DNA of 64,000 nucleotides from an uncultured virus (IMG/VR IMGVR_UViG_3300044612_002689) (lineage: Duplodnaviria > Heunggongvirae > Uroviricota > Caudoviricetes): the IMG/VR virus record IMGVR_UViG_3300044612_002689. One strand, written 5' to 3'. The notes under the pieces are model-generated. The model was not told the DNA's origin, did not search any database, and saw only the letters and a list, made by a program, of their open reading frames with translations. Both the position numbers and the translations under genes were made by a program. Position 1 is the stretch's first letter. Each line of letters starts with the position of its first letter. Below, one piece after another: positions 3 to 26,682 of this stretch.

Positions 3-287
3 CTCGATAGAGGGTTAGGACAAAATATAAATGTGTCTGCATTAAGATCACAAATCCAACAAGAAAATGGTGTAATTTCCTTATCTGGCATATTCTTTTT
101 CAATAAAGTTGGAGGTGAGTATTCTTCATCTCAAACTTCTCAACAATATGAAGATCCAGAAACAAAACTAATTAAACTAATTGCAGATACAATTTTTGCG
201 GAACCATCACAAATTTACCAAGTAAGATTTCCTTCTAAGGACATTAGAGTTAGTGTATTAAATTTAAAGACAGTCAACTTTAGTTAA
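3..287 (+). CDS. C-terminal part of a probable baseplate wedge protein (truncated at window start)
   Basis: Frame is open from position 3 (LDRGLGQNINVSALRSQI...), so the GTG at 33 is probably internal. Sits directly before the tail/baseplate cluster; product inferred from context. Confidence 0.45.
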   Translation, partial: LDRGLGQNINVSALRSQIQQENGVISLSGIFFFNKVGGEYSSSQTSQQYEDPETKLIKLIADTIFAEPSQIYQVRFPSKDIRVSVLNLKTVNFS

Positions 288-359
288 TACAACACCTTTC
301 AAAGGTTTTCATTACACTTTTCAAAAATTGATTATATCTTTTAAAAATACGAAATAAAC

Positions 360-366
360 TATTTAT
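360..366 (+). promoter_or_regulatory. TATTTAT putative late promoter motif
   Basis: 14 nt upstream of ATG 381; the motif recurs before many structural genes. Confidence 0.55.
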
Positions 367-380
367 TTTTAAAAGACCAA

Positions 381-7693: not shown

Positions 7694-8504
7694 ATATAAA
7701 ATATTGTTACCCGAGAACAACAAATATTTAGATATCCCTTTGGAAATGAATTGGGATTTTTTAGGTAGAGATGATTCAATTCAGACCTATCAAAATGAGA
7801 TTCTCAAAGACATTATAGGTAATGCTAATGACTTTGAAATATTACAATTTACCCATAAAGAATATATAGATAGTTCTGGATATAAAAAAAGTGCGGTAAA
7901 TTATGAATTTTATTTTTATGACAATTCAAATCCCGTTACAAGTCCAGTAGTGACACCAGCAAATTGGATTAATAGTTATTTGGATGAAGGGTTTACCACC
8001 CAAGAAGTCTATTATTACTCGAATTCGTTTACGAAATCATTTTTTAAATTAGATTTTTATGATACACCACAAGACCAAACCCAAAAGAATTATTTTACAA
8101 TTATATTACCTGTTCAACAAGGTTTTACACAGAGCGTATCAATATCTCCAGTGTTTCCCCTGGTAGACATAAAAAAACCAAAATTTCAATTAGACTTTAT
8201 TGGTGACAAAGAGGGATTTAACATTTATTGGTTAAGAAAAAAAGATTATGTCGATATCAGTACTTTTTATATGAGTGCAAAATTCTTTAATGCAAAGACC
8301 GGTGAATATGTAAAAATGACAAATACACCGCAACCCTCTATAGGAAACCTTTTTACTTTTAATCCAGAAGATTACTTTTATTATAAAGTAAATTTAGATT
8401 ATCCCAAGTTCAATTATGAAGTATTAACAACTTCCACTCCAAATATTGTAATTGGATTGGATGGGGGATTACCCATAAGATGGTATGAATATATAAATCC
8501 TTAA
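7680..8504 (+). CDS. Putative structural protein, 274 aa
   Basis: Overlaps upstream gene within the structural operon. Confidence 0.5.
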   Translation: MSVNKYKILLPENNKYLDIPLEMNWDFLGRDDSIQTYQNEILKDIIGNANDFEILQFTHKEYIDSSGYKKSAVNYEFYFYDNSNPVTSPVVTPANWINSYLDEGFTTQEVYYYSNSFTKSFFKLDFYDTPQDQTQKNYFTIILPVQQGFTQSVSISPVFPLVDIKKPKFQLDFIGDKEGFNIYWLRKKDYVDISTFYMSAKFFNAKTGEYVKMTNTPQPSIGNLFTFNPEDYFYYKVNLDYPKFNYEVLTTSTPNIVIGLDGGLPIRWYEYINP

Positions 8505-8508
8505 TAAA

Positions 8509-9681
8509 GTGGAAGAACAAAGATATTATTTTAAGATTTCTCCGGAAAATATAATTGGTGATATTTTTCAGGTCACGTATGTTGGTGGAGTTGATGTAAA
8601 ATCAATTATAGATCCCTGTTGTTCTACAACAGCATTTACCTCGACAACAATAACAGGTATCACAGGTGTATATTCGGGAATGTCTCAAGTCTTATCTGGA
8701 GGAACAAACGGTAATTCATTACTTACGGGACTGACTGTTCCAATAGTATTAACTCAAGTTGCAACCGACATTGGATACTACTCACTTTTTGATGGTGCTA
8801 TTCTACAAAAAGATGTTATAACAAATTTTGTTTTCTCAGGATTAACAGGAACCCCTTATACATATTTTGTTTTAAATAGTTCAGATACGGAGTTCAAAAA
8901 GTTTCTAAGTTTAACAACATTTACTATTGATTGGGGCGATGGTACTGCACTACAAACAATAACTGGAAATTTACCCATTTCTCACACCTATCCCGTAACA
9001 TCACAAACTTATCAAATTACTTTAAAGGCAAATTCACCATGGGGAATTTCCACGGTAACAAAAACCATAACAATACCCTACACAAATGTTACAATAAGTA
9101 ACCCAAATGGGACGGCAACATTCCAACCAGCAGGAGGTAGTTGGTCGGCAACATCATTTAGTTATGATTATATTTACACAGGAGACTCTAATACAAACAT
9201 AAATGATTATTACAGTTCGAATTATACAACAGTACCCTTTTTGGTTACAGGTTACACACAAAGTCAAGTTAATGATCTAAAACAATATGGACCAGCATCA
9301 TCCCTTTACGCGAGTAAATTTAAAGTCGGTGTCCCAGTTACTGGTAGTTCTGGTACTATTGGTGTTTTCTGGGGACCAGATCCAACAGGATCCTACACAG
9401 CATATACTATAAATAATATTGATTATTATGATTATGTGGATGGAACAACTATTTTCATTGTTAGTTCATCAGGTTATACTTCAGATAATATAATATTATC
9501 GGCAATCACAAAAAATGAGGCATTACTAAATGTAATTGATGAGGCTGAAATTTTAAGTAGTGTTTTTGTCGAAAGGGGTAAAAACTCGGCATATGAGAGT
9601 GTCCAAAGATTGGGTGAAGTGGATACATTGGGGGATTTACAAAAATACGGTTATGGTTTTTTTAATATAGAAAAACAGTGA
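8509..9681 (+). CDS. Structural protein with PKD-like Ig domain
   Basis: TIDWGDGT...ISHTY...YQITL PKD-like signature; T/S/G-rich. Confidence 0.6.
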   Translation: MEEQRYYFKISPENIIGDIFQVTYVGGVDVKSIIDPCCSTTAFTSTTITGITGVYSGMSQVLSGGTNGNSLLTGLTVPIVLTQVATDIGYYSLFDGAILQKDVITNFVFSGLTGTPYTYFVLNSSDTEFKKFLSLTTFTIDWGDGTALQTITGNLPISHTYPVTSQTYQITLKANSPWGISTVTKTITIPYTNVTISNPNGTATFQPAGGSWSATSFSYDYIYTGDSNTNINDYYSSNYTTVPFLVTGYTQSQVNDLKQYGPASSLYASKFKVGVPVTGSSGTIGVFWGPDPTGSYTAYTINNIDYYDYVDGTTIFIVSSSGYTSDNIILSAITKNEALLNVIDEAEILSSVFVERGKNSAYESVQRLGEVDTLGDLQKYGYGFFNIEKQ

Positions 9682-9688
9682 AATTAGG

Positions 9689-9695
9689 TATTTAT
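9689..9695 (+). promoter_or_regulatory. TATTTAT putative late promoter motif
   Basis: Intergenic, 29 nt upstream of GTG 9725. Confidence 0.5.
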
Positions 9696-9724
9696 AAAAA
9701 TAAACAAGAAAAAATTAGAAATAA

Positions 9725-10633
9725 GTGGCAACAGGTAATTACGGAACAATAAGAAGTGCTGATGTCAGTCCAGATGATGTTGAAATCATCTTGAATTATA
9801 CACCATCAAGAGATGAAACAAATAATTTTGTATTAACAAAATTAAATGCAAGTCAAATTTTGAGACCATACTTCCATAACAATCAAACAGGTGGAAACGC
9901 TAATGTTGAGGTATTAGGTGGTTTATATAACCTACAATTACCGGCAGACAGATTTAACCAACTTGGTATTTATACACTTTATATAAGACCTGCTGAAATT
10001 AGAACTAGAATAACTGATTGTGGTATTTTATCGGCTCTTCCGAATGTGAAAGGAATTGTTATTGACATAAACAATGTTCCATCACAATACCGTAATAAGT
10101 TTATAAATCAAGGTTTAGTGGGATTCAGAGTTGAGTATCTGAATCCTGATGGGTCGAAAATACCTAATTTTTTTAGAATTGTTACTTCCTCATTTTATTG
10201 TGAACCAGTGATTGAAAATTTAACAAACACATCTCAGAAGGCAATCAGATACAGATATGTGGAAACCTCATCAAATTTAATGTTTTGTACTCTATCACCA
10301 TCTTCATCTCCTACTAATAAACCAAACGCAACACCTTTCATTGGACAACCAGATCAAAACATAATAATTACTAATACCTTTTTCAACCCCACCACAGTTG
10401 AGGTTGAAATTGTTGATCAGGATATTTCCACACTTGCAATTGCACTTTATGGTAATCAAACTAAGTCGATGGACGATGGAATTTATACAATCTATGACTC
10501 TAACAATAACATTTACAAACAATACAATTTATATGAAATTAGGGGTCAATTTAATGATCTTCTTTATGAAGTGAGACAAGATAGGGGATCTAATATTGAT
10601 TTCAGTAAAAACTTTACAAATATTACAGGATAA
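9725..10633 (+). CDS. Putative structural protein, 302 aa
   Basis: Long ORF in the tail module, coupled to the next gene. Confidence 0.5.
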   Translation: MATGNYGTIRSADVSPDDVEIILNYTPSRDETNNFVLTKLNASQILRPYFHNNQTGGNANVEVLGGLYNLQLPADRFNQLGIYTLYIRPAEIRTRITDCGILSALPNVKGIVIDINNVPSQYRNKFINQGLVGFRVEYLNPDGSKIPNFFRIVTSSFYCEPVIENLTNTSQKAIRYRYVETSSNLMFCTLSPSSSPTNKPNATPFIGQPDQNIIITNTFFNPTTVEVEIVDQDISTLAIALYGNQTKSMDDGIYTIYDSNNNIYKQYNLYEIRGQFNDLLYEVRQDRGSNIDFSKNFTNITG

Positions 10634-13600
10634 TGGCGTTGACAACTTATAAATGTCCTCCACAACCAGCGGCAGGATCAGGAACATTCTCGAACAATCT
10701 AGTTGGGTTACAATTAGTTGATGGGGGAGGACTGACCCAAGCCAATTTTCAATTTACAACCAACATAACTCAAAAACAGAATAGAAACTTTATAATTGGT
10801 TCGTTCTCAGATCCCATTTCATTGAGGTCTATGAATCTTGAAAACGTCGAAGAGACTAGGATGATCTTGGCAAAAAATTATAAAGTTTACCCGAATTATG
10901 ATTTGTCAGAAATTACAAACATTACGATGTTTGGTTCACTTGTCAAAAGAATATCAGTTTCGGTTGAAAAGATTATTAATTATTTCCCAGCGGCATTAGA
11001 ATCTAAAAATTTATCGTCAAGTTTTTTGACTACAGAAACGGCATCCAACATATCATTTGATCCAGTAGAAAATGAAACTTATTTGGAAATACCAATTACC
11101 GCACTACAAAATCCGTTTGGTATCGATTTTACAACTAATGCAACTAGAAACCTTTCATTAAGGGAAAATCCTGTCTCGGGTCTTAGGAATTTTACAACTC
11201 AGAATTTGAAATATTCTTTGTTTATTTTTGACCAAGAATATAGAGTGGTTGATTACGTACAATTCCAAGATGGAGACACAAGTCTTAAGTTATATGTGAA
11301 TGGAAATCCATTTAGCGGTCAAAGTATAAGTTATGATAATTTTATTGTTAGACCCCAAGATTTGTATGTGAACAAAGTGTTCAGTGAGGATTTTGATACT
11401 GTAGAAAATTTTTTATTAAATAGGACTGTAGTTCCAAAGTATTCTTCAAATTTTACAGTACCAATAGAAACCGAGGCCGGAACATATGTTTATAGTGACA
11501 AAATTATAACATTTCCACTCAATGGTATTTGGAACCTCGACATATTTACAGTAAAATTTACTAATTATCTTAATGATTTAAATTCAGTTGCAATCAATTT
11601 AGATGAGTATAAAACTAATTTAATTGTTAGATTTTTGACTGCAGAAGCAATCAAAGAATTTGACACTCCTGATCAAAAAATACAGAAGGTTCTACAAATC
11701 TATGGTAGAAGTTTCGATGAAACCAAACAATTTATTGGGGCATTGGCCAATATGACTTCAGTTCATTACAACGTACAAAATGATATACCATCACAACTAC
11801 TTAAAAATTTGGCACAAACCCTAGGATGGACAATTAATATTTCACCAATCACAAATGACCAATTATTAAACTCGGTTTTTATAAATGGATCCAATCAATT
11901 TACTGGTTTACCACAAGGACAAACTCCGGAAGAATTGAACTATCAATTTTATAGAAACCTAATTATGAATTCCGCATTCCTGTTTAAATCAAAAGGGACT
12001 AGAAAATCAATAGAAACTTTATTAAGAATGGTAGGAGCACCAGAAGCAATTACTGAGTTTAATGAACATGTTTATTTGGCCGATCAGAAAGTTAACATGA
12101 GTCAGTTTGATTCACAGTTTATAAATTTGAGTGGGGGAACCTGGGTTCAAAATTTACCAGTTTTAGAGATTGGAAATATCTTTTCTATTTACGGTGTACA
12201 ATACACAGGATACACTACAGCACAAATTATTCAAAATGTAACAACAACCTTAATAGACTATCCGGTGGATATAGATGGATTCCCAAGTATGCCACTTGAA
12301 ACCGAAAGTTTCTTTTTTCAAATTGGAGGAGGATGGTTCGAATCTACACCACAACATAGAATGCCTGAAGAGGTAGACTTAACAAATAGTGTTTTCACGG
12401 GAAGTAATCCAAATTATCAAACACAACTTTTACCTTTCAACTATGGTCAAGAATATCTAGATAGATACCGTCAATTTCCATTTATGGATTTGGGATTTAC
12501 TCTTACAAAAGAAATAGATAATAATAAAAGTTGGACCCCAACAGAAATTGGACAAAGAAATTCATCTGATGCTGGTTTCAATGCATATTACCAAGTTCAA
12601 AACGAAAAGTTTGTACTAAATGTAAAAAACGTAGATCTTTTTATGAATCCGGGTCAAGGACTTTTATATGATGTATGGACTATGTCTAGATCATATAATT
12701 ACCCCATACCAGAACAGGGATTATTTTATCAGGAACCAACTTTTTGTAATCCATACCCTAACATTACTTATCCTATAATTGGAGGTATAGACTGGACAGT
12801 AATTGATCCAAAACCCCAACAAAAAACGTTTTTCGAATTTGCCCAAACATTTTGGAAAAATATGATCAATGTTAGAAGTCGAATGTATTCTAATGATGGT
12901 AAGACAAGTGGATACCCAACTCTATCCTCAATATACTGGAAGTATTTAGAATCGGAATATGCGATCAACGTAAAAAATGATAATTTCACATACAAGTCTT
13001 TGATTGAATATGTTGATGGTATGGGAGACTATTGGATTAGACTTGTTGAACAAATGATTCCTGCAACAACAATCTGGGAAACTGGAGTTAGATATGAAAA
13101 TTCAATATTCCATAGACAAAAGTTTATATGGAGAAGACAACGAGGATGTCAATTAATACCTATTGAGTGTAAACCTTGTAAGTTAATAAATCAAATATTC
13201 AGTTATGACTGTCCGGTTTTATTTACCGAAATTGGGTTGTATCCTTGGAACAATTCACCAAATATTTTGTCATTTGGTGCATTATTAGGACAAACTTTAT
13301 CTAATTACGGAACTCAAAATGGAATAGATTTATTTAATGACTGTAATATATCTACTCTTCAAACACAATGGTATGTTGATGTTAGACTTAACGGTGTTCC
13401 GATCATTGTTTATGAGTTTTTCAATGGAGTTGGATATTCTAATCCCACATTAAGTGTTCCAACATCACAGGACTGGTTGGATGGTCTTAACACTGGACTT
13501 ACAAATTTAATTGACTTCGGTTTAGGATTTAATATAGACACTTCAAATAATATTCTTACAATTTTTAATAATAATTGTTTACCTGATGACGTACAATACA

Positions 13601-13647
13601 ATTTCGAATTGAACGTAGGTATAAACTTCGATATTTTATGTAATTAA
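10633..13647 (+). CDS. Baseplate wedge / tail protein I-like protein, 1004 aa
   Basis: IPSQLLKNLAQTLGW and FYRNL...LFKSKGTRKSIETLLRMVG resemble the P2 gpI / T4 gp7-like baseplate motif. Confidence 0.6.
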   Translation: MALTTYKCPPQPAAGSGTFSNNLVGLQLVDGGGLTQANFQFTTNITQKQNRNFIIGSFSDPISLRSMNLENVEETRMILAKNYKVYPNYDLSEITNITMFGSLVKRISVSVEKIINYFPAALESKNLSSSFLTTETASNISFDPVENETYLEIPITALQNPFGIDFTTNATRNLSLRENPVSGLRNFTTQNLKYSLFIFDQEYRVVDYVQFQDGDTSLKLYVNGNPFSGQSISYDNFIVRPQDLYVNKVFSEDFDTVENFLLNRTVVPKYSSNFTVPIETEAGTYVYSDKIITFPLNGIWNLDIFTVKFTNYLNDLNSVAINLDEYKTNLIVRFLTAEAIKEFDTPDQKIQKVLQIYGRSFDETKQFIGALANMTSVHYNVQNDIPSQLLKNLAQTLGWTINISPITNDQLLNSVFINGSNQFTGLPQGQTPEELNYQFYRNLIMNSAFLFKSKGTRKSIETLLRMVGAPEAITEFNEHVYLADQKVNMSQFDSQFINLSGGTWVQNLPVLEIGNIFSIYGVQYTGYTTAQIIQNVTTTLIDYPVDIDGFPSMPLETESFFFQIGGGWFESTPQHRMPEEVDLTNSVFTGSNPNYQTQLLPFNYGQEYLDRYRQFPFMDLGFTLTKEIDNNKSWTPTEIGQRNSSDAGFNAYYQVQNEKFVLNVKNVDLFMNPGQGLLYDVWTMSRSYNYPIPEQGLFYQEPTFCNPYPNITYPIIGGIDWTVIDPKPQQKTFFEFAQTFWKNMINVRSRMYSNDGKTSGYPTLSSIYWKYLESEYAINVKNDNFTYKSLIEYVDGMGDYWIRLVEQMIPATTIWETGVRYENSIFHRQKFIWRRQRGCQLIPIECKPCKLINQIFSYDCPVLFTEIGLYPWNNSPNILSFGALLGQTLSNYGTQNGIDLFNDCNISTLQTQWYVDVRLNGVPIIVYEFFNGVGYSNPTLSVPTSQDWLDGLNTGLTNLIDFGLGFNIDTSNNILTIFNNNCLPDDVQYNFELNVGINFDILCN

Positions 13648-16610
13648 TGAGTTGCGGTGCTATTATACCTTCGTATTCAATAACCGGAGATTGTTCAAAT
13701 ACTAACTCTGGAGGTATTTCTATAAACATAACTGGAGGTACAGCACCTTATACTGTTTTTGAAATTTCATCTTCAGGACTACTACCCACTTCTGCGGCTA
13801 CTACATACTATGAATTCTCTGGGTTGTCAGGTGGATCGTATGTATTACAAATACAAGATTCTTGTTCAGCAATCACTTCTTATTATGTTTCATTCGATAT
13901 ATCAACAGGTACGACTGTAGATATTTTATCTTATTCTAACACCGTTTGTGGTCCTGGTGGAGGGGGATCTCTTCAGGTCCAACTTCCAGTAATTTATGGA
14001 GGTTGCGAGTATTATCTATATGAAGTCACTAACGGATTTATAACTAGTGCATTTACTTCATCGAACACTCAAACCTTTTCAAACCTTGGTGTTGGAAATT
14101 ATTATGTAATTGCAGATAATTCGGGAGGTTGCACTGGATCAAGTGCAAATGTGATAATTATGTCGTCTACAACACTGGATTTTGGTCTATACATCGTAGA
14201 CGATGCAAGTTGTATACCATTAGCGGGTTCTGGTAAAGTTTTTGTAACTGGAGTAACTGGAACACCTCCTATTTCTTATTTGTGGTCAAATGGACAAACT
14301 GGTTCTACGGCAACTGGATTGACTGCAGGGTATTATACTGTTACAGTCTCCGACAGTAATAGTTGTTCACTTACAAGTGGTTTCACAATCACTAATATTC
14401 CACCAGTTGGTGTTACCCCAATCACATATGTAACAGGATCAACTTGTTTCAATAGTGATGGTGCTGTAGAAGTTATTGTTACTGGGGGGACTGCACCTTA
14501 CTTTTTCTCAGGATCTAATGGTGATACACAAATCACATTTAGTAACTCTTATATTTTTGAAAATTTACCGTCTGGAGTTTTTAACGTGATTGTAACTGAT
14601 AGCGGTCTTTGTACTTCATTTGGTTCAGTCAATTTACTTACACCAAATGGATTTTCAATTGCATCAATTACGTCAACAAATTCAACCTGTAATAACAATG
14701 GTACTATAAACATTGTTGTAAATACCGGAAGTCCGGGTGCAACCTTTCTATATACACTCTATGACAGTTCAGGAAATACTGTTACAACAGTTACAACTGG
14801 AACAATTGTTAATTTTACTAATTTACCATCAGACACGTATGTCTATACTATTGATAACAGTGGATGTCTATTCACTGGAACAACAACTATTAATAATACT
14901 AGTTTATATTCGATATCGGCATCTACCACAGGAACAACTTGTGGTTTAAATAATGGTAAAGTTGTAATAACTGCATCTTCAGGAGGTACGTTACCATATA
15001 CTTACCAAATTAATGGTAATCCAACCCAACCAACAGGTTTATTTAACAACCTATCAAGTGGAATCTATACGGCTACCGTAACTGATGCAAATGGTTGTAC
15101 TCAAACTCAAAATTTTTTAATCACACCTTCTTCCCAATTATTTTTTCTCACAAGTACAGTTCCATGCGTTGTAGGTAATGATGGTGAAATTTCAACCTTT
15201 ATAACATCAGGAACACCACCATTTACTTATAACTGGAGTGCAAATGTTGGTCCTCAAACAGGACCAGTTGTTACAGGACTTACAGTTGGAACTTATTTAA
15301 TAGAAATAACAGATGCAGATGGATGTGTGTCAAAAAGGACTGTAACCTTGGGGGGAACTAATTTGGTGACTGGTTATCAAATATTTACACTTAGTGATAG
15401 TGTATTCGTAAATTCTGGAATTTCCGGTAAAAGGGGAATTCCGCAAATGTATTATGAAGGATTTTCGGATCTAACATATAATGACTATGGATGTGTTGTC
15501 AATTCTGCTGATTTTATATTAGAGACAATAGTAAATGGAATTGCAAAACAAACAATATTTTACAGATCTTCAGGGATTTATGATTATCCGAATGATATTC
15601 AGTGGTCAAATGCTGTTACAGATCAATTATTAAGTTATCCAGACATTGGAAATGTATCTATAGATTTGCTAAAAAACAAAATAACTATAAGTAATTTTTG
15701 TGACAAACTTGACAAAAGTTGTAAACAATACGATTACAATACATTACAAGATGCAAAAGTAATAATTAACTTATTAATTGATTACGACATATCATGTATT
15801 GAATGTGATATCCCACCACCAACACAATGTTGTCCACAAACTTATGATTTACCACTGAATAAACTTTCCACAATAATCGATGGAGTTTCTATGACCGCAG
15901 TGACTACAGGGGATGTGTCTAAAATAACTCCAATTAATGATTTTTTACCGGCTTGTTTTTCTGATGAAGCAAATACTGGTGATTTAGTGGCTTTGGGTTA
16001 TAATAATGGTCCTTACACTTATACACTAAATTTTGATACACCGATTAATAACTTAAAGTTAAGGTTAATCAATTATAGTTCTTCAGTTGATTCTTTAGGT
16101 AATATAGTTCAACAAGAAATATTGAATTTTACTACTAATTCAGGAACACCAAGTTTAACTGTATGTCAAGGTTGTTGTTACACAATAGAAGGAAATCAAT
16201 TCAAAGCATTCCCAACGGACACAAGTTGTATTTCGGAAGATGGTGTACATACTGAAGGAAGTGCGGTGATCACAATCGAGTCAATAACAAACTTCACTTC
16301 AATAACCATAACGGGATCTTCAAATACAACTTCACTCAATGGAACTTTTATAGATCTTTGTAGTTTTGATTTTGAACCAACACCCACACCTACCCCAACA
16401 CCAGTTAGTGGTTGTTCCCAATATTGGGTTTCGAACTCATCCTCAGATGTAAATGCTCGAATAACATTTACACCTTGCTGTGGTGAAAGTAAAACTTCAC
16501 CTTATATGTTAGTAGGTGGTACTAGTGCATCAATTTGTTCATCAACCCCAATATTAGTGACATCGGGAAGTGCTTCCATAGTTTCCGCTGGGTCTTGCCC
16601 AAGTTGTTAA
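13647..16610 (+). CDS. SprB-repeat-containing fibre/adhesin-like virion protein, 987 aa
   Basis: Repeated GGTAPY / GTPPxxYxW...GLxAGxYxVTVxDxNxC units; C-terminal (PT)n linker followed by a Cys-rich module. Confidence 0.65.
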   Translation: MSCGAIIPSYSITGDCSNTNSGGISINITGGTAPYTVFEISSSGLLPTSAATTYYEFSGLSGGSYVLQIQDSCSAITSYYVSFDISTGTTVDILSYSNTVCGPGGGGSLQVQLPVIYGGCEYYLYEVTNGFITSAFTSSNTQTFSNLGVGNYYVIADNSGGCTGSSANVIIMSSTTLDFGLYIVDDASCIPLAGSGKVFVTGVTGTPPISYLWSNGQTGSTATGLTAGYYTVTVSDSNSCSLTSGFTITNIPPVGVTPITYVTGSTCFNSDGAVEVIVTGGTAPYFFSGSNGDTQITFSNSYIFENLPSGVFNVIVTDSGLCTSFGSVNLLTPNGFSIASITSTNSTCNNNGTINIVVNTGSPGATFLYTLYDSSGNTVTTVTTGTIVNFTNLPSDTYVYTIDNSGCLFTGTTTINNTSLYSISASTTGTTCGLNNGKVVITASSGGTLPYTYQINGNPTQPTGLFNNLSSGIYTATVTDANGCTQTQNFLITPSSQLFFLTSTVPCVVGNDGEISTFITSGTPPFTYNWSANVGPQTGPVVTGLTVGTYLIEITDADGCVSKRTVTLGGTNLVTGYQIFTLSDSVFVNSGISGKRGIPQMYYEGFSDLTYNDYGCVVNSADFILETIVNGIAKQTIFYRSSGIYDYPNDIQWSNAVTDQLLSYPDIGNVSIDLLKNKITISNFCDKLDKSCKQYDYNTLQDAKVIINLLIDYDISCIECDIPPPTQCCPQTYDLPLNKLSTIIDGVSMTAVTTGDVSKITPINDFLPACFSDEANTGDLVALGYNNGPYTYTLNFDTPINNLKLRLINYSSSVDSLGNIVQQEILNFTTNSGTPSLTVCQGCCYTIEGNQFKAFPTDTSCISEDGVHTEGSAVITIESITNFTSITITGSSNTTSLNGTFIDLCSFDFEPTPTPTPTPVSGCSQYWVSNSSSDVNARITFTPCCGESKTSPYMLVGGTSASICSSTPILVTSGSASIVSAGSCPSC

Positions 16611-16651
16611 ATTTAATATACTTTTGAAAAAAAGAAAATATATTTAATTTA

Positions 16652-17644
16652 ATGCAAAAAATTCAATTTGTTTCAGCACAACCAGATGTTCCATACTTTC
16701 ATTGGCAGACTAAATTGTACGTTTCAAATTTTTTAGAATTGGGAATTGATCCTTGTAATATTCATGTAATTTTTGGTCTGACAAATGGACAAGATAAACC
16801 ATCGGAAGAATCAAAAAAATTATGTAATTTTGGAATTAATGTTCATTATTATGTTGATAACAGAATTAATAAATCTTACATACCAAGTATAAAACCTTAT
16901 TTGATTTCACAATGGTTATGGGAAAATCCGGAACTGGGTGAATTGTTTTTTTTACATGATGCGGATATAATTTTTAGAAAATTACCTAATTTTGAATCAC
17001 TATTAAATGATAATATAAATTATCTTTCGGATACTATAAATTATATAGGGTTTGATTATATACAAACTTGTTGTGAAAAATATGAAGGGGCACATCCGAA
17101 CCAAGAAAAAAATTCACTTTTGAATGAAATGTCCAAAATTATTCAAATTGATCCTGATTTAATAAAACAAAACCAATTGAATTCTGGTGGTGGACAATAT
17201 CTTTTGAAAAATACAAATTATGATTTGTGGACTAAAATTTATGTGGATTGTGTTCCACTTTATAAACAAATGCTCAATTATAATAGAAGAAACCCAATTA
17301 GAGGTGGTGAAATACAGTTTTGGACTGCGGAAATGTGGTCTTTGTTATGGAATCTCTGGAGGTCTGGTTATGAAACTAGAGTTACACCTGAATTAGATTT
17401 TTCTTGGGCAACAGACGATATAAAAACCTATGAATCAAAACCCATACTTCACATGGCTGGAGTTACTGAGGACATTAGAACTACTAAGTTTTATAAAGGA
17501 GGTTTCATTCACGAAGACCCAATCAAATTATTAGTTGAGAACCAAAACTATTTTGATTATGTGGATAAAAATAGTGCAACTTTAAAATATATTGATTTGA
17601 TTAGAAATTTTATCCAAAAATACAATAACGAATTATTTATATAG
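16652..17644 (+). CDS. GT-A fold glycosyltransferase, SERGT/HPAT-like protein O-glycosyltransferase
   Basis: YFHWQ, YIPSIKPYLISQWL, FLHDADIIFR (DxD) and WTAEMW motifs in the order I recall for plant SERGT1/HPAT. Confidence 0.65.
   Translation: MQKIQFVSAQPDVPYFHWQTKLYVSNFLELGIDPCNIHVIFGLTNGQDKPSEESKKLCNFGINVHYYVDNRINKSYIPSIKPYLISQWLWENPELGELFFLHDADIIFRKLPNFESLLNDNINYLSDTINYIGFDYIQTCCEKYEGAHPNQEKNSLLNEMSKIIQIDPDLIKQNQLNSGGGQYLLKNTNYDLWTKIYVDCVPLYKQMLNYNRRNPIRGGEIQFWTAEMWSLLWNLWRSGYETRVTPELDFSWATDDIKTYESKPILHMAGVTEDIRTTKFYKGGFIHEDPIKLLVENQNYFDYVDKNSATLKYIDLIRNFIQKYNNELFI
17634..17640 (+). promoter_or_regulatory. TATTTAT putative late promoter motif
   Basis: 16 nt upstream of ATG 17657. Confidence 0.5.
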
Positions 17645-17656
17645 AACATATTATCA

Positions 17657-19702
17657 ATGGCAACACTTTTCAAAGTAGAAAATACCGGAACTACAATTTA
17701 TTCTAATTTTTTATTTGTAGATGGTAATGGAAATATAAAGACATTTGACATTTTACCTAACGTTGAGTATTATGTTAACGCAAATTCCATTTCATTAACT
17801 CCCGGTATTAGTATCATAAATTTAGGACTTGACGATACAAGATATTGTTTTGTGAGTTGTTGCGGTTCCCACACTTTTAGTTTTAATGGAAATTTTAATT
17901 CAGTCGCATTTTCAAACTATTCGGTTGGAGAAGTTCTTAATTTTAATGTTTTAATATCTTCTTTAAATCCATCCGAATATAAAAGTGGATGTTATGAACT
18001 TGTAAGTTCGGGAAGTTCGGATTCATATGCGTGTGGTATAACTGGTTACGATGAATTTTCAATTATAAATTTCGATAATGGATCTTTTTATAATTGTGAA
18101 TCGTGTCAAGTTTATTCAGATTGTTGTAGATCCTATCAAATAACAAATGAATCATCAGTAACCACAGCGTCTGTTTATATTTATCCATGTTGTGATGAAC
18201 CCCAGGGACCAAAAATTACCCTTCCCCCACAAACCTCTATATCGGTTTGTTCATCAAGGGGTGTCGATACAATTGCAGGAACAATATTGGTATTAGACTC
18301 TGGAGATTGTCCAACTTGTTCGACAGCAATTACAACAACACAACTTATTACCACCACAACAACCTATCAACCTCAAAATAATATAATATCCCCTAGAAAC
18401 GAGTGTGATGTAATTACATTATTTCCAATGGAAGTTGAATGTTTTGTAATTAATCCAACAAGTCCAACATCTTTTGATGGGGCTATTTCATTAGGTATTA
18501 CAGGAGGAACCCCACCTTATGAAATACTATGGGAAACAGGGGCTTTAAGTCAGGCAATTACAAACCTTGGTCCAGGAATATATTCGGCAACTGTGATAGA
18601 TTCTTACGGTGATTTTACCGCAACAACCGCATGTAGACTAAGAACAATAGAACCAATTACAACTACAACAACAACTTTATCACCATATCCTCAATATGAT
18701 GATATTTGTTTGTCAATTATAAAATCCGATAAAAATGGTAGTTTTGTTGAATATTATACTTTCGAATTCCAAGGATTTGAAAATTACCACCCACTCTGGA
18801 CTGAAAGTGGAAACACCTATAGTATAATATGGAATATTAATCAATGGGAAGTTTCTGGGTGGACCATGGGTCAAATTGTGAATATTGATCCGGCTGAACC
18901 ACCAATCGTAGGATGGCAAATTCTTGGAAGTTCTGGTCCTGTTGTTGTAAATCAGGTTATAGCAAATAATAACGATTGTCTAATAATTAAAAAACCTCTT
19001 TTCAGATATACTACAGATGACGCAACTTGTCAATGTGACGGTAATATAAGTATTATTCCTTTTGGAGGTTTTCCACCTTATCAATATTCTATTGATGGGG
19101 GCATAACTTTTTCTAATTTTCCTTTTTTTACTAACTTGTGTGGTGGACAATATATCACAGTATTAAATGATTCTTCAGGATTTACAAACACACAAGTTAT
19201 TAATTTAAATCAATTAAATCAAATACAAAACTATATATTAACTCTTTCATATACTGGACTTTCGTTTGAAGTTAAAATAAATCCACCTTTACCTTCGGGA
19301 TGTACTATAAACTTTGATTTGGTACACACTAATTCATTTACTGTTGGCCCAACCTATTCGGCTGCAACATATTTGAATACGGTAACGTTAAATGTTGATG
19401 GTAATCCTGTAGGGTTTGACACACCAATAAATATAATAAACTACCCACCAGTTCCTCTACAATTCCCATGTCAATCATTGAATAGTTATACAACAAATAA
19501 AACTTACACATGGAGTAATTTAACAATGGGTGGACCATCAATTTCAGGGCCAGCAACGACTATAACCGGAACAATAACAGATGCAATATCACCTGTACTA
19601 CCAACACCACAATGTTTTTACGTTGATAATTATTATCAGGTGTATTTGATTAACCCAAGTATTGAATGCGATTGTAGTACAGTTGAAGCACAAAATAGTT
19701 AA
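17657..19702 (+). CDS. Cys-rich virion protein with SprB-like repeats and Thr runs, 681 aa
   Basis: GITGGTPPYEILW...NLGPGIYSATVID and GGFPPYQYSIDGG units; TTTTT linkers. Confidence 0.6.
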   Translation: MATLFKVENTGTTIYSNFLFVDGNGNIKTFDILPNVEYYVNANSISLTPGISIINLGLDDTRYCFVSCCGSHTFSFNGNFNSVAFSNYSVGEVLNFNVLISSLNPSEYKSGCYELVSSGSSDSYACGITGYDEFSIINFDNGSFYNCESCQVYSDCCRSYQITNESSVTTASVYIYPCCDEPQGPKITLPPQTSISVCSSRGVDTIAGTILVLDSGDCPTCSTAITTTQLITTTTTYQPQNNIISPRNECDVITLFPMEVECFVINPTSPTSFDGAISLGITGGTPPYEILWETGALSQAITNLGPGIYSATVIDSYGDFTATTACRLRTIEPITTTTTTLSPYPQYDDICLSIIKSDKNGSFVEYYTFEFQGFENYHPLWTESGNTYSIIWNINQWEVSGWTMGQIVNIDPAEPPIVGWQILGSSGPVVVNQVIANNNDCLIIKKPLFRYTTDDATCQCDGNISIIPFGGFPPYQYSIDGGITFSNFPFFTNLCGGQYITVLNDSSGFTNTQVINLNQLNQIQNYILTLSYTGLSFEVKINPPLPSGCTINFDLVHTNSFTVGPTYSAATYLNTVTLNVDGNPVGFDTPINIINYPPVPLQFPCQSLNSYTTNKTYTWSNLTMGGPSISGPATTITGTITDAISPVLPTPQCFYVDNYYQVYLINPSIECDCSTVEAQNS

Positions 19703-19708
19703 AAATAA

Positions 19709-19715
19709 TATTTAT
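19709..19715 (+). promoter_or_regulatory. TATTTAT putative late promoter motif
   Basis: 6 nt upstream of ATG 19722. Confidence 0.55.
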
Positions 19716-19721
19716 TAAAAA

Positions 19722-22256
19722 ATGGCATATATAATTAAAAATACTTCAGGGTTAATCAACACTAGAGTCACTGATACAGGTAGACAAAAAATGTCACAAG
19801 GAAATTTTAACGTTGCATATTTCCAACTTGGAGATTCTGAGGTTTCATATGACAAACACAATTCAAATTATAATCAGTTCAATAGTTTTGTCCAATTACC
19901 CCCATTTGGAAGTCAAAATAGTGGTGGTTATCCAAAATCAAATAAACAAAATGTGAAGTATCCATATTATGTTGATGGTAACACAGGAAATACATATGGA
20001 ATACCTTTTATGGATTCATCAATCGAATCTGTTTATAATAGTGCACCACTAAGAGGTTTTTTTACCGGAAACACTACCGCAACTACAATTAGTTGGAGTG
20101 CATTTACAAACGACTATTATGTTGTATCGGCAAATTATACAATTGATTTATCTCTATTAAATGGTACTAATGAAATTGATTTAATATATGATCCATGTAA
20201 CCCGACGAATGTAAGAACTCCAAGAGTAGGTGATTTTATAACAATTTATTACGATGGGTTTGGGTGTACTAATTGTAATTGTAGTAATTTACCAACACCA
20301 ACACCCACAAGTTCCAATCAATCTACCCTAACCCCCACCCCAACACCATCTGTAAGTACAGGAACAATTAATTGTGCCAGCCCAACACCAACCCCTACAC
20401 CCACTAGAACAGAGTGTTTAACACCAACACCATCAAGACAATGTCCTCCACCACCAGAATCGGTTTGTTTATCAAGGGTGTTTAGTTGTTACCCAATATT
20501 GACTTATCGGATTATTGCAGTTTGTGAAAACAAAATCACTTTAGACAGACCAACACCGAATTTCATGGGACTAGCACCAAACTGTGAGGCGAGAGTGATA
20601 ATTTATCCTCCATCCATGACGGATCAATATGATAGTCTTACACCGAGTCCTCACTGGTATTCTGATGTGATAAATTATGAATCACTTTGTGAACTTGACC
20701 AACTTGAAGTTAAAATTTGGAACATGAATATTCCATGGACCGAAAGTCCGGCAGGATTAAATTCTAATTTCTTTTTGGATTACAACAATTTCGGATCAGT
20801 TGATTATATTGGTAGTAAAGAATATTTTGGTTACTCAACAAGTGAGGGTCAATCATTTTATGTGAGTTCTATTCTCAGTGCTGAAACTACTGATACATAT
20901 TTTTATAATTCATTTGATGATATTGTAAAAGTCCAACCAGAAGAACAAAAAGCAATAGCAATTATTCATTATACAAACCAAACTATTGATTTGTTTTATG
21001 GGGAGAAATTTGCTGCAGAACCATTCGATAGTACAAACCCCGGAGCAACTGGACAAGCAAGAAACTTCAGATTACATATTCCGTGGTTGATGTGGCATAA
21101 AAATCCTGAATGTTGTTTTGGTCAAACATTTTGGATAGATCCTCCAGGATTTGATGGATTAAATTTAGCGGAACCACATTATATGCAATCAACACCTAAT
21201 CAAGATATGAATTATCCTGGTTTGAGATATTATGTTTTGTGGGACACATTTAGAAATAAAGATGGTTTCCCAAGTAGAATAGGGAAAGTATTTCCTGATA
21301 GTCAAACTATTGTAATAGATGATGAAGAAATAGTCGCAGCATTAAGTTATAAATCAAACAGAAACTGGACACTACCTGCACCTCAAGTTTCATTGATCGA
21401 ACCAAATTCCTGTGGATCGGAAAGTTCTACTGGGGTGGGAGTTATTTCTGGGGCAAATGAAACGATGTACATTACTTACAGATTATCAAATGATTTTGAA
21501 TTTACAAATTCACTACATTGTAATTATTATATACCAATAGTTGGTAACAGTAATGTTTGTGTTCCAGACACAAGTAAGGATGTTGCAATCAGATTTGGAG
21601 GGGAATTTAATTGTTTAGTTGTACCAGGATTTAATCCTACAACTACAACAACAACACATAGTCCAGTAACTACGACTACTACTATCTATCACCCAACCAC
21701 CACGACAACAACTCAGTGTCCTTTAGTATGTGACGTACCAAATGGATTTTACGCAACTGAATTCCAAGTTCTGGCACAAAAAGTTGTAACAGGAGAAAGA
21801 CCTGATCCGACAAAATGGAAAATCATTGATTTCACAAATAATTTAAGTGGTGAAACTATTAATGGATATGTTACACAACAATCATTAACAGCAAATACAT
21901 TTGTTATTACCGATACGATATATAATAATGCACCAACTTATAATTTGGATAATTTTGTTCCATTAGTTCCCCTCGGGACAACAACTCCCCAGTTGAACTT
22001 TGGTGATGAATACTATTTTTACGGATCATTACAAACAGACATTGAGGCTAGTATCTATGAAATGAGATATAAAATTAACTTAAGTTACAATGAGTTCCAA
22101 ACAACAACAAATCCAACATGGACTCCAGGTACAAATTCTTATATAACTGAAATCGCGTTGTTGGATCGAAACAAAGATGTATTGGTTGTTTCCAAAATGC
22201 AGTCCCCAGTTCTTCGACAAGGAATCCAACAATTTTTGATCAAGTTTGATTTTTAA
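19722..22256 (+). CDS. Baseplate/tail-fibre attachment-like protein with (PT)n and poly-Thr inserts, 844 aa
   Basis: N-terminal TRVTDTGRQKM...YFQLGD and C-terminal ITEIALLD...VLVVSK resemble tail-fibre attachment domains. Confidence 0.55.
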   Translation: MAYIIKNTSGLINTRVTDTGRQKMSQGNFNVAYFQLGDSEVSYDKHNSNYNQFNSFVQLPPFGSQNSGGYPKSNKQNVKYPYYVDGNTGNTYGIPFMDSSIESVYNSAPLRGFFTGNTTATTISWSAFTNDYYVVSANYTIDLSLLNGTNEIDLIYDPCNPTNVRTPRVGDFITIYYDGFGCTNCNCSNLPTPTPTSSNQSTLTPTPTPSVSTGTINCASPTPTPTPTRTECLTPTPSRQCPPPPESVCLSRVFSCYPILTYRIIAVCENKITLDRPTPNFMGLAPNCEARVIIYPPSMTDQYDSLTPSPHWYSDVINYESLCELDQLEVKIWNMNIPWTESPAGLNSNFFLDYNNFGSVDYIGSKEYFGYSTSEGQSFYVSSILSAETTDTYFYNSFDDIVKVQPEEQKAIAIIHYTNQTIDLFYGEKFAAEPFDSTNPGATGQARNFRLHIPWLMWHKNPECCFGQTFWIDPPGFDGLNLAEPHYMQSTPNQDMNYPGLRYYVLWDTFRNKDGFPSRIGKVFPDSQTIVIDDEEIVAALSYKSNRNWTLPAPQVSLIEPNSCGSESSTGVGVISGANETMYITYRLSNDFEFTNSLHCNYYIPIVGNSNVCVPDTSKDVAIRFGGEFNCLVVPGFNPTTTTTTHSPVTTTTTIYHPTTTTTTQCPLVCDVPNGFYATEFQVLAQKVVTGERPDPTKWKIIDFTNNLSGETINGYVTQQSLTANTFVITDTIYNNAPTYNLDNFVPLVPLGTTTPQLNFGDEYYFYGSLQTDIEASIYEMRYKINLSYNEFQTTTNPTWTPGTNSYITEIALLDRNKDVLVVSKMQSPVLRQGIQQFLIKFDF

Positions 22257-22305
22257 AAAATAACAAGGCTTCATTTTTTTTTATATTTTTTTATTCTTAA
22301 TTTGT

Positions 22306-22905
22306 ATGAATAGAATTAAAAACACACCCAAAGTTCTTGGACTTGATATCTCAACCAAAACTATTGGTTGGGCTTTATTTGATATGCAATCACAACAATT
22401 ACTAGAGTTAACTCATATATCACCAAGACCAAAATTAAACACAGAAGATAAATTACATGAACTACTTTTAAAATCCGAAGTATTTGCAAGTAAATTGGAA
22501 ACATATAAAAATTTGGGAATAATGAGAGTCATTATAGAAGAACCTTTATTAAACTCTAACAATGTTTATACAATTCAAACATTGTTAAGATTCAACAGTT
22601 TCTTATTTAAAGAAATATATAATATATTAGGTATAGTTCCTGAATTTATATCGACTTATAATGCTAGAAAATACGCATTTCCGGAATTAGTCCAGGAAAA
22701 TGATAAAAAGAAATTTGTTTTGTTTGGAGGTCTGCCCAAAGACATCGATAAAAAAATGATTATATGGGAAAAAGTTGCAAAAAAAGAACCCCAAATCACT
22801 TGGCAGTTCACTAAAAATAATACTTTGAAAAAAGAAAACTTTGATCAAACAGATGCGTACACTTGTGTTTTAGGGTATATGAGATTTAAAGAAATCTGGA
22901 AATAA
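22306..22905 (+). CDS. RuvC-like Holliday junction resolvase
   Basis: VLGLDISTKTIGWA, IIEEP and DQTDA acidic triad of the RNase H/RuvC fold. Confidence 0.8.
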   Translation: MNRIKNTPKVLGLDISTKTIGWALFDMQSQQLLELTHISPRPKLNTEDKLHELLLKSEVFASKLETYKNLGIMRVIIEEPLLNSNNVYTIQTLLRFNSFLFKEIYNILGIVPEFISTYNARKYAFPELVQENDKKKFVLFGGLPKDIDKKMIIWEKVAKKEPQITWQFTKNNTLKKENFDQTDAYTCVLGYMRFKEIWK

Positions 22906-22934
22906 GATCGTTTGAAATAACGATAATTTGAAAT

Positions 22935-22958
22935 ATCGTCTTTTTAGACGATTTTTTT
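22935..22958. terminator. Intrinsic terminator at convergent junction
   Basis: ATCGTCT-TTTT-AGACGAT hairpin followed by a T-run. Confidence 0.6.
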
Positions 22959-24603
22959 ATGGACAAACAATCACATTTATAATAGTTCCATTCACGTCAA
23001 CCTGGACTGCATATATTACAACTCCAGGATTTGACACACTAGAAATGGCAATCCAGTTGTTTGCTTGTCCACTCACAGGTAAACCAGTTGAATTATTAAT
23101 CAATGAAGTTGATGTTGTTGGAATTGGCATTGAGGTTGCCCAATCACCACCACTAAATGATGAGTAATTTGAACAAGCCAAATCTGGTGCTGTAAACCAA
23201 CTTGCACCTCCAGTCCATAAAAATGAAACACTACTTGGGGTTGGAGTTAAAGTTTTGGTTATAGAAGGCGTTGGTGTTGGAGTTCTTGTTGGTGTTGGCG
23301 TAAGATAATTAGTTGGTGTTGGTGTTGGGGTATTACATAATAATCCAGTTACAGAAACAAAAACATTAGAATATTGATCAACAATAGGCGTGCTTATTGA
23401 ACAAATTATTATACCAGATCCACCATTAACTGTTCCTGAAATCTCAAGACCAGTATTACAATCAATATAAGTAAAATTTCCTTCAGTTATTGGGTCATTA
23501 TTTTGAACATAAAACTGAAAGCAATTGTTTGAGTAACAGCAATTATCAATAATGTCAATTGTACAGTTTCCACTACTCAATGTTGGAGTTGTTTTTGAAC
23601 AGATTATAATGACTTCATTAATTGTTGTACCAAACTCTGCAGGGGTTCTTGTTACTACAGTATTTGACAAACAATCAGTATATGTGATATTTGAAGTTTC
23701 ACCTTCGTCGTTAAAATCAAACAGTTTAAATTGGTTACATGGACATATACTACTAGGTGTTGGAGTAGGCGTTGAAGTACTAACTGGTGTCTTAGTTATT
23801 GGAATACACTCCAAACATTTTCCCTGGCTTGATGGTCCATATTCTGTTGTAATTAACACATTATCGATTCCACTTACGTAATCTACAATTTCAGTAAAAA
23901 TGAAACATGAACTCACACCATTTATAAAACCACCATAAACGTCACCAAGTATCAAAGGATATCCATTAGAATCGAATATTGACTGGCTTGTAAAGAAATC
24001 CGCACCAGAAAAACAGTCTTCAAACTTTTTACTATTTGCACATGTTATCCTACCGTCAACATTGTTGAATTTGGCAACACCACCAAAATTACACGGTCTT
24101 GTTTGTTCTAATGAAACAGTTGGGGTAACAGTTATGGTAGGTGTTGGTGTAGGTGTAAAACCAGTTATTGAGGCATTTACAGAGACACCACCACAGACAT
24201 TTGTTGAACTTGGTGTTATTGTAACGGTTGGTGTGACAGTCATTGTTGGTGTGACAGTTGGGGTAACAGGGACATCACAATCAAAGATTGCATCAAAGTC
24301 TATCAAACAAGAAGGTGCTGAGGTGGGGCTTGGAGTAGGAGTTACACAAATACCAGAATATAGATAAATTGAATATATGTCCGGACAATCATTAACAGAA
24401 GGAGCCGGACCGAATAAGGTACAAGGACCACCCAGAGTAGTTGATACACACCATTGAGTAAAACCAGTTGAATAATAAATGAAATAACCATTAGTTACTC
24501 CGCTATAAGAATCAAAGCCATCGTAAGTTCCTATAATTTCATATGAGTCATCATATAATGAAGAAGTACCACTGATACAAAAATCTGAAGAAGAACAACT
24601 CAT
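22957..24603 (-). CDS. Cys-rich, (PT)n-rich virion/fibre-associated protein
   Basis: Several TPTPTP linkers separate Cys-rich modules. Start probably ATG 24603, in an ATGA overlap with the upstream gene. Confidence 0.65.
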   Translation of the reverse strand: MSCSSSDFCISGTSSLYDDSYEIIGTYDGFDSYSGVTNGYFIYYSTGFTQWCVSTTLGGPCTLFGPAPSVNDCPDIYSIYLYSGICVTPTPSPTSAPSCLIDFDAIFDCDVPVTPTVTPTMTVTPTVTITPSSTNVCGGVSVNASITGFTPTPTPTITVTPTVSLEQTRPCNFGGVAKFNNVDGRITCANSKKFEDCFSGADFFTSQSIFDSNGYPLILGDVYGGFINGVSSCFIFTEIVDYVSGIDNVLITTEYGPSSQGKCLECIPITKTPVSTSTPTPTPSSICPCNQFKLFDFNDEGETSNITYTDCLSNTVVTRTPAEFGTTINEVIIICSKTTPTLSSGNCTIDIIDNCCYSNNCFQFYVQNNDPITEGNFTYIDCNTGLEISGTVNGGSGIIICSISTPIVDQYSNVFVSVTGLLCNTPTPTPTNYLTPTPTRTPTPTPSITKTLTPTPSSVSFLWTGGASWFTAPDLACSNYSSFSGGDWATSMPIPTTSTSLINNSTGLPVSGQANNWIAISSVSNPGVVIYAVQVDVNGTIINVIVCP

Positions 24604-24821
24604 AGGGATAAAGTTTGAGTTACTATACAATCATTATCATCAACCAACTTTAATTCGTATGTCGTTAAAGTTGATAAAATCGAAGGTACAGTAAATGTAT
24701 AAGGAATTTGAGAATTTGTGATTGTACTAATATAAACACAAGTTGTAATTGGTGAATCACATATATATACATCAAATGGATCGTTTCCTGTTGCGGTATT
24801 AATAGTTACGTTTACTGGCAT
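24600..24821 (-). CDS. Small beta-rich protein, 73 aa, probably structural
   Basis: Coupled to the downstream gene; TATTTAT motif upstream. Confidence 0.6.
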   Translation of the reverse strand: MPVNVTINTATGNDPFDVYICDSPITTCVYISTITNSQIPYTFTVPSILSTLTTYELKLVDDNDCIVTQTLSL

Positions 24822-24836
24822 GAATTTGTTATTATT

Positions 24837-24843
24837 ATAAATA
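24837..24843 (-). promoter_or_regulatory. TATTTAT putative late promoter motif (minus strand)
   Basis: ATAAATA on the + strand, 15 nt upstream of ATG 24821. Confidence 0.55.
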
Positions 24844-24868
24844 TAGAAATTAAAAAAAACTTGTGAAG

Positions 24869-24900
24869 TTTGTTTGATTCATTTTTTTTCTATATATTTG
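24869..24900 (+). promoter_or_regulatory. Bacteroidota-type -33/-7 promoter
   Basis: TTTG(24869)-N20-TATATTTG(24893), ending 4 nt before the primase ATG. Confidence 0.65.
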
Positions 24901-24904
24901 CAAC

Positions 24905-26675: not shown

Positions 26676-26682
26676 ATCTTAA

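Follow-up and report, generated by a model that had tools for sequence, protein, structure and literature searches.

We have analysed a 64,000-nucleotide (nt) stretch of DNA from an uncultured Caudoviricetes virus (IMG/VR record IMGVR_UViG_3300044612_002689), referred to below as the window, with the focus on a gene for a predicted glycosyltransferase (GT) at positions 16652–17644 and on threonine runs encoded by its neighbours. The window is phage DNA with the G+C content of about 31% and encodes functions in replication and recombination that are T4-like, namely a primase, an SbcCD-type nuclease, sigma factors and a DNA methyltransferase; a tRNA scan of the window found none, and megablast of positions 10000–30000 against cultured phages gave no match. 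A single same-strand gene array spans positions 3 to 22256, and in it an open reading frame (ORF) of 1004 amino acids (aa) is followed by the genes for two SprB-repeat proteins, of 987 aa and 681 aa, with the 330-aa enzyme encoded between them, and then by the gene for an 844-aa protein. The features of this array are as follows (PT stands for Pro-Thr, Tn for n consecutive Thr residues):

3..13647, plus strand: upstream block, the end of a Baseplate_J gene (3–287) followed by ORFs of 1853, 583, 274, 390, 302 and 1004 aa.
13647..16610, plus strand: 987-aa SprB-repeat protein (Pfam SprB, E 1.2e-19), with PTPTPTPTP at aa 911 (nt 16377–16403).
16652..17644, plus strand: predicted soluble GT-A glycosyltransferase of 330 aa, member of phrog_4417, with an AlphaFold2 (AF2) fold, the DxD motif D103/D105 and invariant H267.
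17657..19702, plus strand: 681-aa fibre-like protein with SprB repeats, candidate acceptor, with T5/T6 runs at nt 18350–18364 and 18659–18676.
19722..22256, plus strand: 844-aa conserved protein, the best candidate acceptor, with a PT linker at aa 191–228 (nt 20292–20405) and a Thr cassette.
21636–21713 (aa 639–664 of the 844-aa protein): Thr cassette of three P-x-T5-6 units (T5-6 runs at 21639–21713).

The upstream block is presumed to be a baseplate/wedge module. Its first ORF (3–287, 5'-open) is the end of a Baseplate_J gene, because the Pfam match 900–1421 on a locus-identical contig ends at approximately window position 50. The order of the following six ORFs, from 1853 to 1004 aa, is kept in all ten related loci with ORFs listed, and GPW_gp25 and Baseplate_J are found directly upstream of the conserved block in four out of four related records, two of which, of 290,887 bp and 318,164 bp, are rated 99–100% complete. 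The ORF 10633–13647 has a weak match to Tail_P2_I (Pfam, E 0.018). Profiles of the 1004-aa and 583-aa proteins have no match in PDB, tblastn with the 844-aa and 1004-aa proteins yields no match in cultured phages, and the best score of an Atlas search with the 583-aa protein (0.77) is in the chance range.

A preliminary description of this locus had placed a lone enzyme with four quoted motifs in a tail/fibre cluster and proposed that it O-glycosylates the Pro/Thr linkers of the fibres. Its picture of the locus holds well: all four motifs are located in ORF 16652–17644, at aa 15, 76, 100 and 224 (nt 16694–16708, 16877–16918, 16949–16978 and 17321–17344), the Pro/Thr tracts lie within about 25 nt of the positions given there, a Pfam scan of the window finds no other glycosyltransferase or sugar gene, and the placement in a tail/fibre cluster is supported by context (Baseplate_J and GPW_gp25 upstream, SprB repeats in two neighbours).

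The enzyme matches phrog_4417 with E 7.7e-66, a family annotated in PHROG as "unknown function", and has no match in Pfam (E ≤ 0.1) or NCBIfam. None of 46 aligned family members matches any GT model of Pfam at E ≤ 10, and the sequence model of GT8 (Pfam Glyco_transf_8) recognizes neither the enzyme nor these 46 members. Sequence and profile searches of PDB with the enzyme yield no relative; weak matches to a mitochondrial ribosomal protein (E about 0.003) were read as chance.

The AF2 model of the enzyme, built with 46 homologs, has the predicted local distance difference test (pLDDT) value of 96.9 and the predicted template modelling score (pTM) of 0.94. Its fold is of the GT-A type, a single Rossmann-like alpha/beta/alpha domain. 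Foldseek with this model gives 325 PDB matches at E ≤ 0.001, with GT-A transferases on top. In a structure comparison with 48,161 chains, the model matches glycogenin-1 (score 15.6, root-mean-square deviation 3.5, 231 residues aligned), Skp1 alpha-galactosyltransferase (6mw8, 14.5), the UGGT catalytic domain (14.4), LgtC (14.0), WbbM (13.7), LARGE1 (13.1), GlyE (5gvv, 12.6) and the capsid glycosyltransferase of PBCV-1 (2p6w, 11.6). In terms of CAZy, these matches are retaining GT8-like enzymes, several of them protein-directed. The three-dimensional structure is GT8-like also in having a C-terminal His near an H-x-x-G motif. The DxD motif comes after strand 98–101; D105, H267, G270 and K282 are invariant in 46 sequences with 31–67% identity, and D103 is at least 90% conserved in the same set. 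Hydropathy over 19 residues peaks at 0.91, a hydrophobic anchor is absent, and the model is globular from residue 5. Thus modelled, ORF 16652–17644 is supported as a GT-A glycosyltransferase.

Some relatives have a more complex architecture. A second glycosyltransferase domain is found in 17 of the 106 longer or partial relatives scanned; these domains are PF11397 "GlcNAc", Glyco_transf_7C, GT2, GT6, GT29 and, weakly, GT25. Single relatives out of the 106 have protein O-fucosyltransferase or radical SAM/SPASM domains.

Pro/Thr tracts in the window are concentrated around the enzyme. Tracts defined as [PTS]6+ are present in seven of the 47 window ORFs of at least 150 aa, and 15 of the 19 tracts are found in the four large neighbours of the enzyme. 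Runs of five or more Thr (T5+) are observed six times, compared to 0.035 expected from composition, and five of the six lie in the two genes directly downstream of the enzyme. The codons in the Thr runs are mixed (ACA, ACT, ACC and ACG). Origin of the runs as a simple DNA repeat or by replication slippage was weighed and discarded in view of the mixed codons and of the conservation of run positions among orthologs with 52–74% identity. In related loci, orthologs of the 681-aa protein encoded directly downstream of the enzyme have runs of T5-10.

The distribution of Thr runs has been compared with that of the enzyme in the window lineage. The 1004-aa protein was found in 71 loci, of which 39 of at least 22 kb were analysed and 32 shorter ones dropped. 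The enzyme is present in the locus in 31 cases and elsewhere on the contig in two, and six loci on contigs of 58–158 kb have no enzyme match. T5+ runs are observed in all 33 loci with the enzyme and in none of the six without it (Fisher p = 3e-7, ignoring relatedness), while PT-type tracts are present in both sets (33 of 33 and six of six). A quick tree built from the 1004-aa protein places the enzyme-less loci, six in all, in two separate clades, so that two changes are needed.

The same trend is seen within one protein. We aligned 31 orthologs of the 844-aa protein, coming from 28 enzyme-bearing loci, two enzyme-less contigs, and one locus without assigned enzyme status. The segment corresponding to aa 636–670 contains one to five P-x-T5-11 units, and 25 of the 28 enzyme-bearing loci encode an ortholog with a T5+ run there. 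Of the three exceptions, two carry Thr runs at a second linker site, aa 186–236, which is occupied by PT repeats in most orthologs, and one has a T4 run at that site, together with a T5 run in the protein next to it. The cassette segment is deleted, and the PT linker kept, in the two orthologs that come from enzyme-less contigs. The Thr runs are small insertions in orthologs that align with 52–57% identity over about 800 aa. Pure Thr runs, in the form of P-x-T5-11 units, travel with the enzyme, and PT linkers do not, because in the enzyme-less loci T5+ runs are found in none of six, but PT tracts in all six. Hence the proposal of the preliminary description is retained in part: a GT-A enzyme is linked to Thr tracts, but the association that it expected with (PT)n genes across related phages is seen for pure Thr runs only, PT tracts being present with or without the enzyme.

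A second set is provided by relatives of the tail protein of Enterococcus phage phiFL1A, found in 27 IMG/VR loci, one of which, lacking the tail-protein ORF, was dropped. In each of the 12 enzyme-bearing loci, both the tail protein and a capsid-like ORF contain Thr runs, and none of the 14 enzyme-less loci has any T5 run. Loci with and without the enzyme are interleaved by identity to the query: those at 96–100% and 83% have it, those at 79–87% do not, and at 64–68% three have it and nine do not. By identity classes, at least two transitions between presence and absence of the enzyme are counted in this set.

The family is widespread. It comprises 1141 database proteins at E ≤ 0.001 and 832 cluster representatives, and is present in 261 IMG/VR stretches and 138 prokaryote genome stretches. 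By tblastn, it is found with 31–37% identity in 77 cultured phage records, with Lactobacillus, Enterococcus, Staphylococcus, Lactococcus, Clostridium and Chryseobacterium as hosts. Examples of cultured carriers are Enterococcus phages VPE25 and phiFL1A, Lactococcus phage 1706, Staphylococcus phage SA2 and Chryseobacterium phage MA9V-3. Our literature searches found no paper on this enzyme family. When 80 IMG/VR loci were picked by the presence of the enzyme, a T5+ run was located no more than 8 kb from it in 77, and in the remaining three the contigs end soon after the enzyme gene.

Eight cultured-phage loci were opened in detail, and in all eight ORFs near the enzyme homolog carry Thr runs. 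In seven of them the homolog belongs to the module of structural genes, where it is found next to, or not far from, the gene for the capsid or major tail protein, and proteins of the capsid, protease or major tail type (annotated or identified by position) end in runs of 6 to 21 Thr/Ser residues. The exception is Lactobacillus phage Semele, where the homolog is among replication genes and the Thr runs are on two small adjacent hypothetical ORFs. The stand-alone form of about 300 aa is the only transferase beside Thr-tailed proteins in the cultured-phage loci examined.

Cellular relatives show a different picture. We classed 80 prokaryote genome loci by neighbourhood, scoring T5 runs within 6 kb. 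In 34 of them, mostly from Bacillota, T5+ runs are found beside the stand-alone enzyme, and these loci look like prophages. In 26 others, from Bacteroidota, genes for LanC-like proteins and/or C39-peptidase ABC exporters are beside a fused form of 450–830 aa, and there are no Thr runs. Twenty loci have neither Thr runs nor LanC/C39 genes, and none has both. The 26 loci resemble those of peptides made on the ribosome and modified after translation (RiPPs), and radical SAM enzymes are also among the neighbours there. Three RiPP-like loci encode candidate leader peptides, in small ORFs that combine a double-glycine motif with a core rich in Cys, Thr and Ser; all are from Chitinophaga or Mucilaginibacter, and the enzyme in them is a fused protein of 570–590 aa with a second domain of the Glyco_transf_7C type:

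L193:532-8818, RiPP-like locus.
L204:6007-10414, RiPP-like locus.
L218:2173-8934, RiPP-like locus.

These loci may encode an undescribed class of glycosylated peptides, and the RiPP-like neighbourhoods support polypeptide acceptors for the family. The family domain also occurs within proteins of 1000–1377 aa in eight loci (L195:5983-9024, L191, L202, L208, L210, L213, L243 and L248) on Actinomycetota, Myxococcota and Bacteroidota contigs of metagenome-assembled genomes, with no Thr runs or RiPP genes nearby. Of these, L195 was scanned, and there the same protein also contains a PF11397 "GlcNAc" transferase domain and a domain of the F5/8 type C.

We consider it probable that the enzyme O-glycosylates the Thr runs of the two fibre-like proteins, of 681 and 844 aa, encoded downstream, and this is the most likely of the explanations we have weighed. 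The enzyme would be a soluble, cytoplasmic, metal-dependent GT-A glycosyltransferase, presumably retaining and GT8-like. Late in infection it would take a host nucleotide-sugar and O-glycosylate Thr runs (P-x-T5-7 units) on newly made phage particle proteins, with the 681-aa and 844-aa proteins as the likely acceptors. In this way the baseplate or fibre apparatus would acquire short glycosylated segments of a mucin-like kind, with stiffness, shielding or resistance to proteases as a possible benefit.

One alternative is that the enzyme acts on a non-protein acceptor (lipopolysaccharide (LPS), teichoic acid, capsule or phage DNA), and the Thr runs are ordinary flexible linkers. This seems unlikely to us, as it leaves unexplained both the co-occurrence of Thr runs with the enzyme (12/12 vs. 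0/14 and 33/33 vs. 0/6) and the deletion of the cassette in 844-aa orthologs. Moreover, with the exception of Semele, the gene is found in the structural module (seven of eight cultured loci) and not among replication or lysogeny genes, and in 26 of 80 cases cellular homologs reside in peptide-modification clusters, not in polysaccharide loci. A DNA-modifying transferase was ranked low for the same reasons.

Another alternative, to which we also give little weight, is that a host enzyme adds the first sugar to the Thr runs and the phage enzyme extends or caps the glycan, or acts on PT linkers as well. Fusion of many relatives to a second transferase domain implies multi-step glycans, no second transferase is recognizable in the window, and enzyme-bearing phages have either PT or Thr-run linkers at one site of the 844-aa protein, all of which would fit such a scheme. 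Against it, the stand-alone form is the sole transferase near Thr-tailed proteins in the cultured-phage loci examined, and the hosts span Bacillota and Bacteroidota, for which a common priming enzyme is not obvious.

The enzyme and the Thr runs might also have been co-inherited in one exchanged structural block with no biochemical link between them. Phage structural modules are indeed swapped as blocks, and independent transitions are few (two in the window lineage and at least two in the Enterococcus set), the counts ignoring relatedness. However, the Thr runs are small insertions in well-aligned orthologs rather than swapped genes, and they reside on different proteins in different phage groups (capsid, protease, tail tube, fibres), always with the enzyme, which makes this explanation very improbable. 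We consider equally remote that the GT-A fold protein transfers a non-sugar group (sugar-phosphate or nucleotide) or is a non-catalytic binder of Thr runs.

Several observations weigh against O-glycosylation of the Thr runs as proposed here. The LPS/O-antigen enzymes LgtC and WbbM are among the fold neighbours, and since they act on LPS, the fold alone does not name a protein acceptor; the preliminary description would have been contradicted by LPS- or DNA-modifying transferases as the best structural matches, and what is found is a mixture of protein-directed and LPS enzymes. In 46 of the 80 prokaryote loci T5 runs are absent within 6 kb, and family membership by itself does not, therefore, imply glycosylation of Thr runs; the homologs in these 46 are thus unlinked to Thr/PT-rich genes, which goes against the preliminary description in part, although 26 of them are in peptide-modification clusters. 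The six enzyme-less contigs of the window lineage are fragments, 20–51% complete, and represent only two lineages, and the gene could lie elsewhere in the respective genomes. In the window itself, two PT-rich neighbours, the 987-aa protein and a 557-aa protein encoded on the minus strand, have no pure Thr (T5) run. The window neighbours are likely virion proteins by gene context, with no match in cultured phages or PDB, and both glycosylation and the activity of all family members are predictions from sequence. A complex prediction for the enzyme with aa 622–692 of the 844-aa protein gave the score of 0.00 and had no controls, so it counts neither way.

The preliminary description had also assigned the enzyme to the plant peptidyl-serine galactosyltransferase (SERGT) and hydroxyproline arabinosyltransferase (HPAT) family, and this assignment was not borne out, as PF23452 (HPAT) matched no family member scanned. 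It has no match to the enzyme, to the 46 aligned members (E ≤ 10) or to eight cultured-phage homologs (E ≤ 1), and none among 106 representatives at E ≤ 0.001–0.01, the only thresholds shown there. In five genomes carrying the family there are no PF23452 matches over the cut-off. There are also none in 401 other Bacteroidota genomes, where the controls likewise gave none. A profile search of 5.8 billion proteins shows no HPAT label or Pfam-labelled bridge in the top 120. The assignment had been based on the motif order of the plant enzymes. The only link in its favour is a lead from the Atlas language model: of the 30 named clusters nearest to the enzyme, 20 fall in a set where about 10% of the members carry HPAT. 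HPAT membership of the enzyme is thus not confirmed, and we do not file it under GT95 or GT96; distant homology to plant HPAT/SERGT is possible. The plant HPAT and SERGT1 enzymes are Golgi membrane proteins, retaining and of the GT-A type, which act on Pro-rich linkers bearing Ser or hydroxyproline, whereas the phage enzyme has no membrane anchor and its apparent acceptor is Thr runs.

The nearest virus record (G001, 187,384 bp) has 45% of the window's sampled words in common, overlaps another part of the genome, and contains neither the window region 9000–27000 nor the enzyme. As the enzyme region is absent from it, the PF23452 search of this record is uninformative.

Other systems resemble the one described here in part. 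The protein-directed enzymes of the GT8 type (glycogenin, Skp1 alpha-galactosyltransferase, GlyE and UGGT) are alike in fold, with identity to the phage enzyme of only 7–12%; GlyE (5gvv) belongs to the pneumococcal serine-rich-repeat pathway and UGGT to GT24. The A64R-type enzyme of chlorovirus PBCV-1 (2p6w) comes from a eukaryotic giant virus and, with a shorter match of 191 aligned residues, is no closer than many other GT-A enzymes. The RiPP-like loci are similar to those of glycocins (SunS/GccA-like) in that cellular family members are accompanied by double-glycine leaders, C39 ABC exporters and LanC-like proteins, which gives these members the look of peptide glycosyltransferases, but the known glycocin transferases are GT2 enzymes, and this family is GT8-like.

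The closest parallel among phages is seen in mycobacteriophages. The window enzyme is 16 kb into an array led by Baseplate_J, and in mycobacteriophages the transferase is likewise within or beside the structural genes. There, as described in PMC12619734 and PMC13313380, phage transferases modify proteins of their own particles (Freeman et al., 2023, Cell Host Microbe), and the glycans are found at the C-termini of capsid and tail-tube subunits. These sites correspond to the place of the Thr tails beside the family in Firmicutes phage loci. In the window, by contrast, the Thr runs are internal in fibre-like proteins, and capsid and tail-tube genes are outside the window. The phages also differ: here these are phages of Bacillota and Bacteroidota and large aquatic phages, with a family that has no Pfam name and is known from genes alone. 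As far as our literature searches show, experimental demonstration of particle glycosylation in phages is limited to some actinobacteriophages. PMC12894461 describes ten phages without detectable glycoproteins.

A wider generalization is tentative and, on balance, rather doubtful: a poly-Thr tag and a soluble GT8-like transferase might form a portable pair for sugar-coating of particles across phyla (capsids, tail tubes and fibres in phages of Bacillota and Bacteroidota and in aquatic phages of 290–318 kb), with the same family glycosylating RiPPs and sharing ancestry with plant HPAT/SERGT. If the family does act on particle proteins, virion glycosylation would extend to phages that infect lactic acid bacteria, enterococci, staphylococci or clostridia, as well as to Bacteroidota phages and abundant large aquatic phages. 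The acceptor tag would be simple and readable in sequence, so that genomes could be used to predict which particle proteins are glycosylated. This would bear on phage stability, receptor binding and immune recognition in phage therapy, and might provide a short tag for engineered glycosylation, while the relatives in RiPP clusters would suggest that Bacteroidota have glycosylated peptides of an unexplored class.

Other features of the window, beyond the structural array or with Pro/Thr tracts of their own, are listed below:

22306–22905: RuvC-like resolvase gene, flanked by the fibre-like genes on one side and by the PT-rich gene of the minus strand on the other, with weak PHROG matches (E about 2e-4).
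22957..24630, minus strand: 557-aa protein, in which seven PT-type linkers separate small Cys-rich modules.
24600..24821, minus strand: 73-aa ORF with a weak match to the Ig-like Kre9_KNH domain (E 9.7e-4, below the curated cut-off).
37682..38731, plus strand: 349-aa ORF with a PT tract and a T5 run (nt 38306–38320), the only one of the window outside the two genes downstream of the enzyme.

The RuvC-like gene marks the end of the structural array. The 349-aa ORF, which has no match in PHROG or Pfam and lies approximately 1 kb downstream of an Amidase_2 gene (36100–36693), is a possible further acceptor. At its TTG start, the 557-aa ORF shares 31 nt with the 73-aa ORF, which is read in another frame; either they represent a single gene with a shift, or the start of the 557-aa ORF may be located further downstream.

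In the 987-aa protein the PT linker precedes a Cys-rich end module of 68 aa. This module, of about 65 aa (window 16404–16607), recurs at aa 157–221 of the 681-aa protein (window 18125–18319), the two copies having 34% identity (E 2e-10), and it is also inserted between Thr runs of some 844-aa orthologs (L017, L042). The AF2 model of the 844-aa protein, built with 31 orthologs, has the mean pLDDT of 45.3, too poor for a fold search. Finally, the window encodes a DnaJ-type co-chaperone (44051–45001), in which the J domain, the zinc-finger centre and the C-terminal domain are all present.

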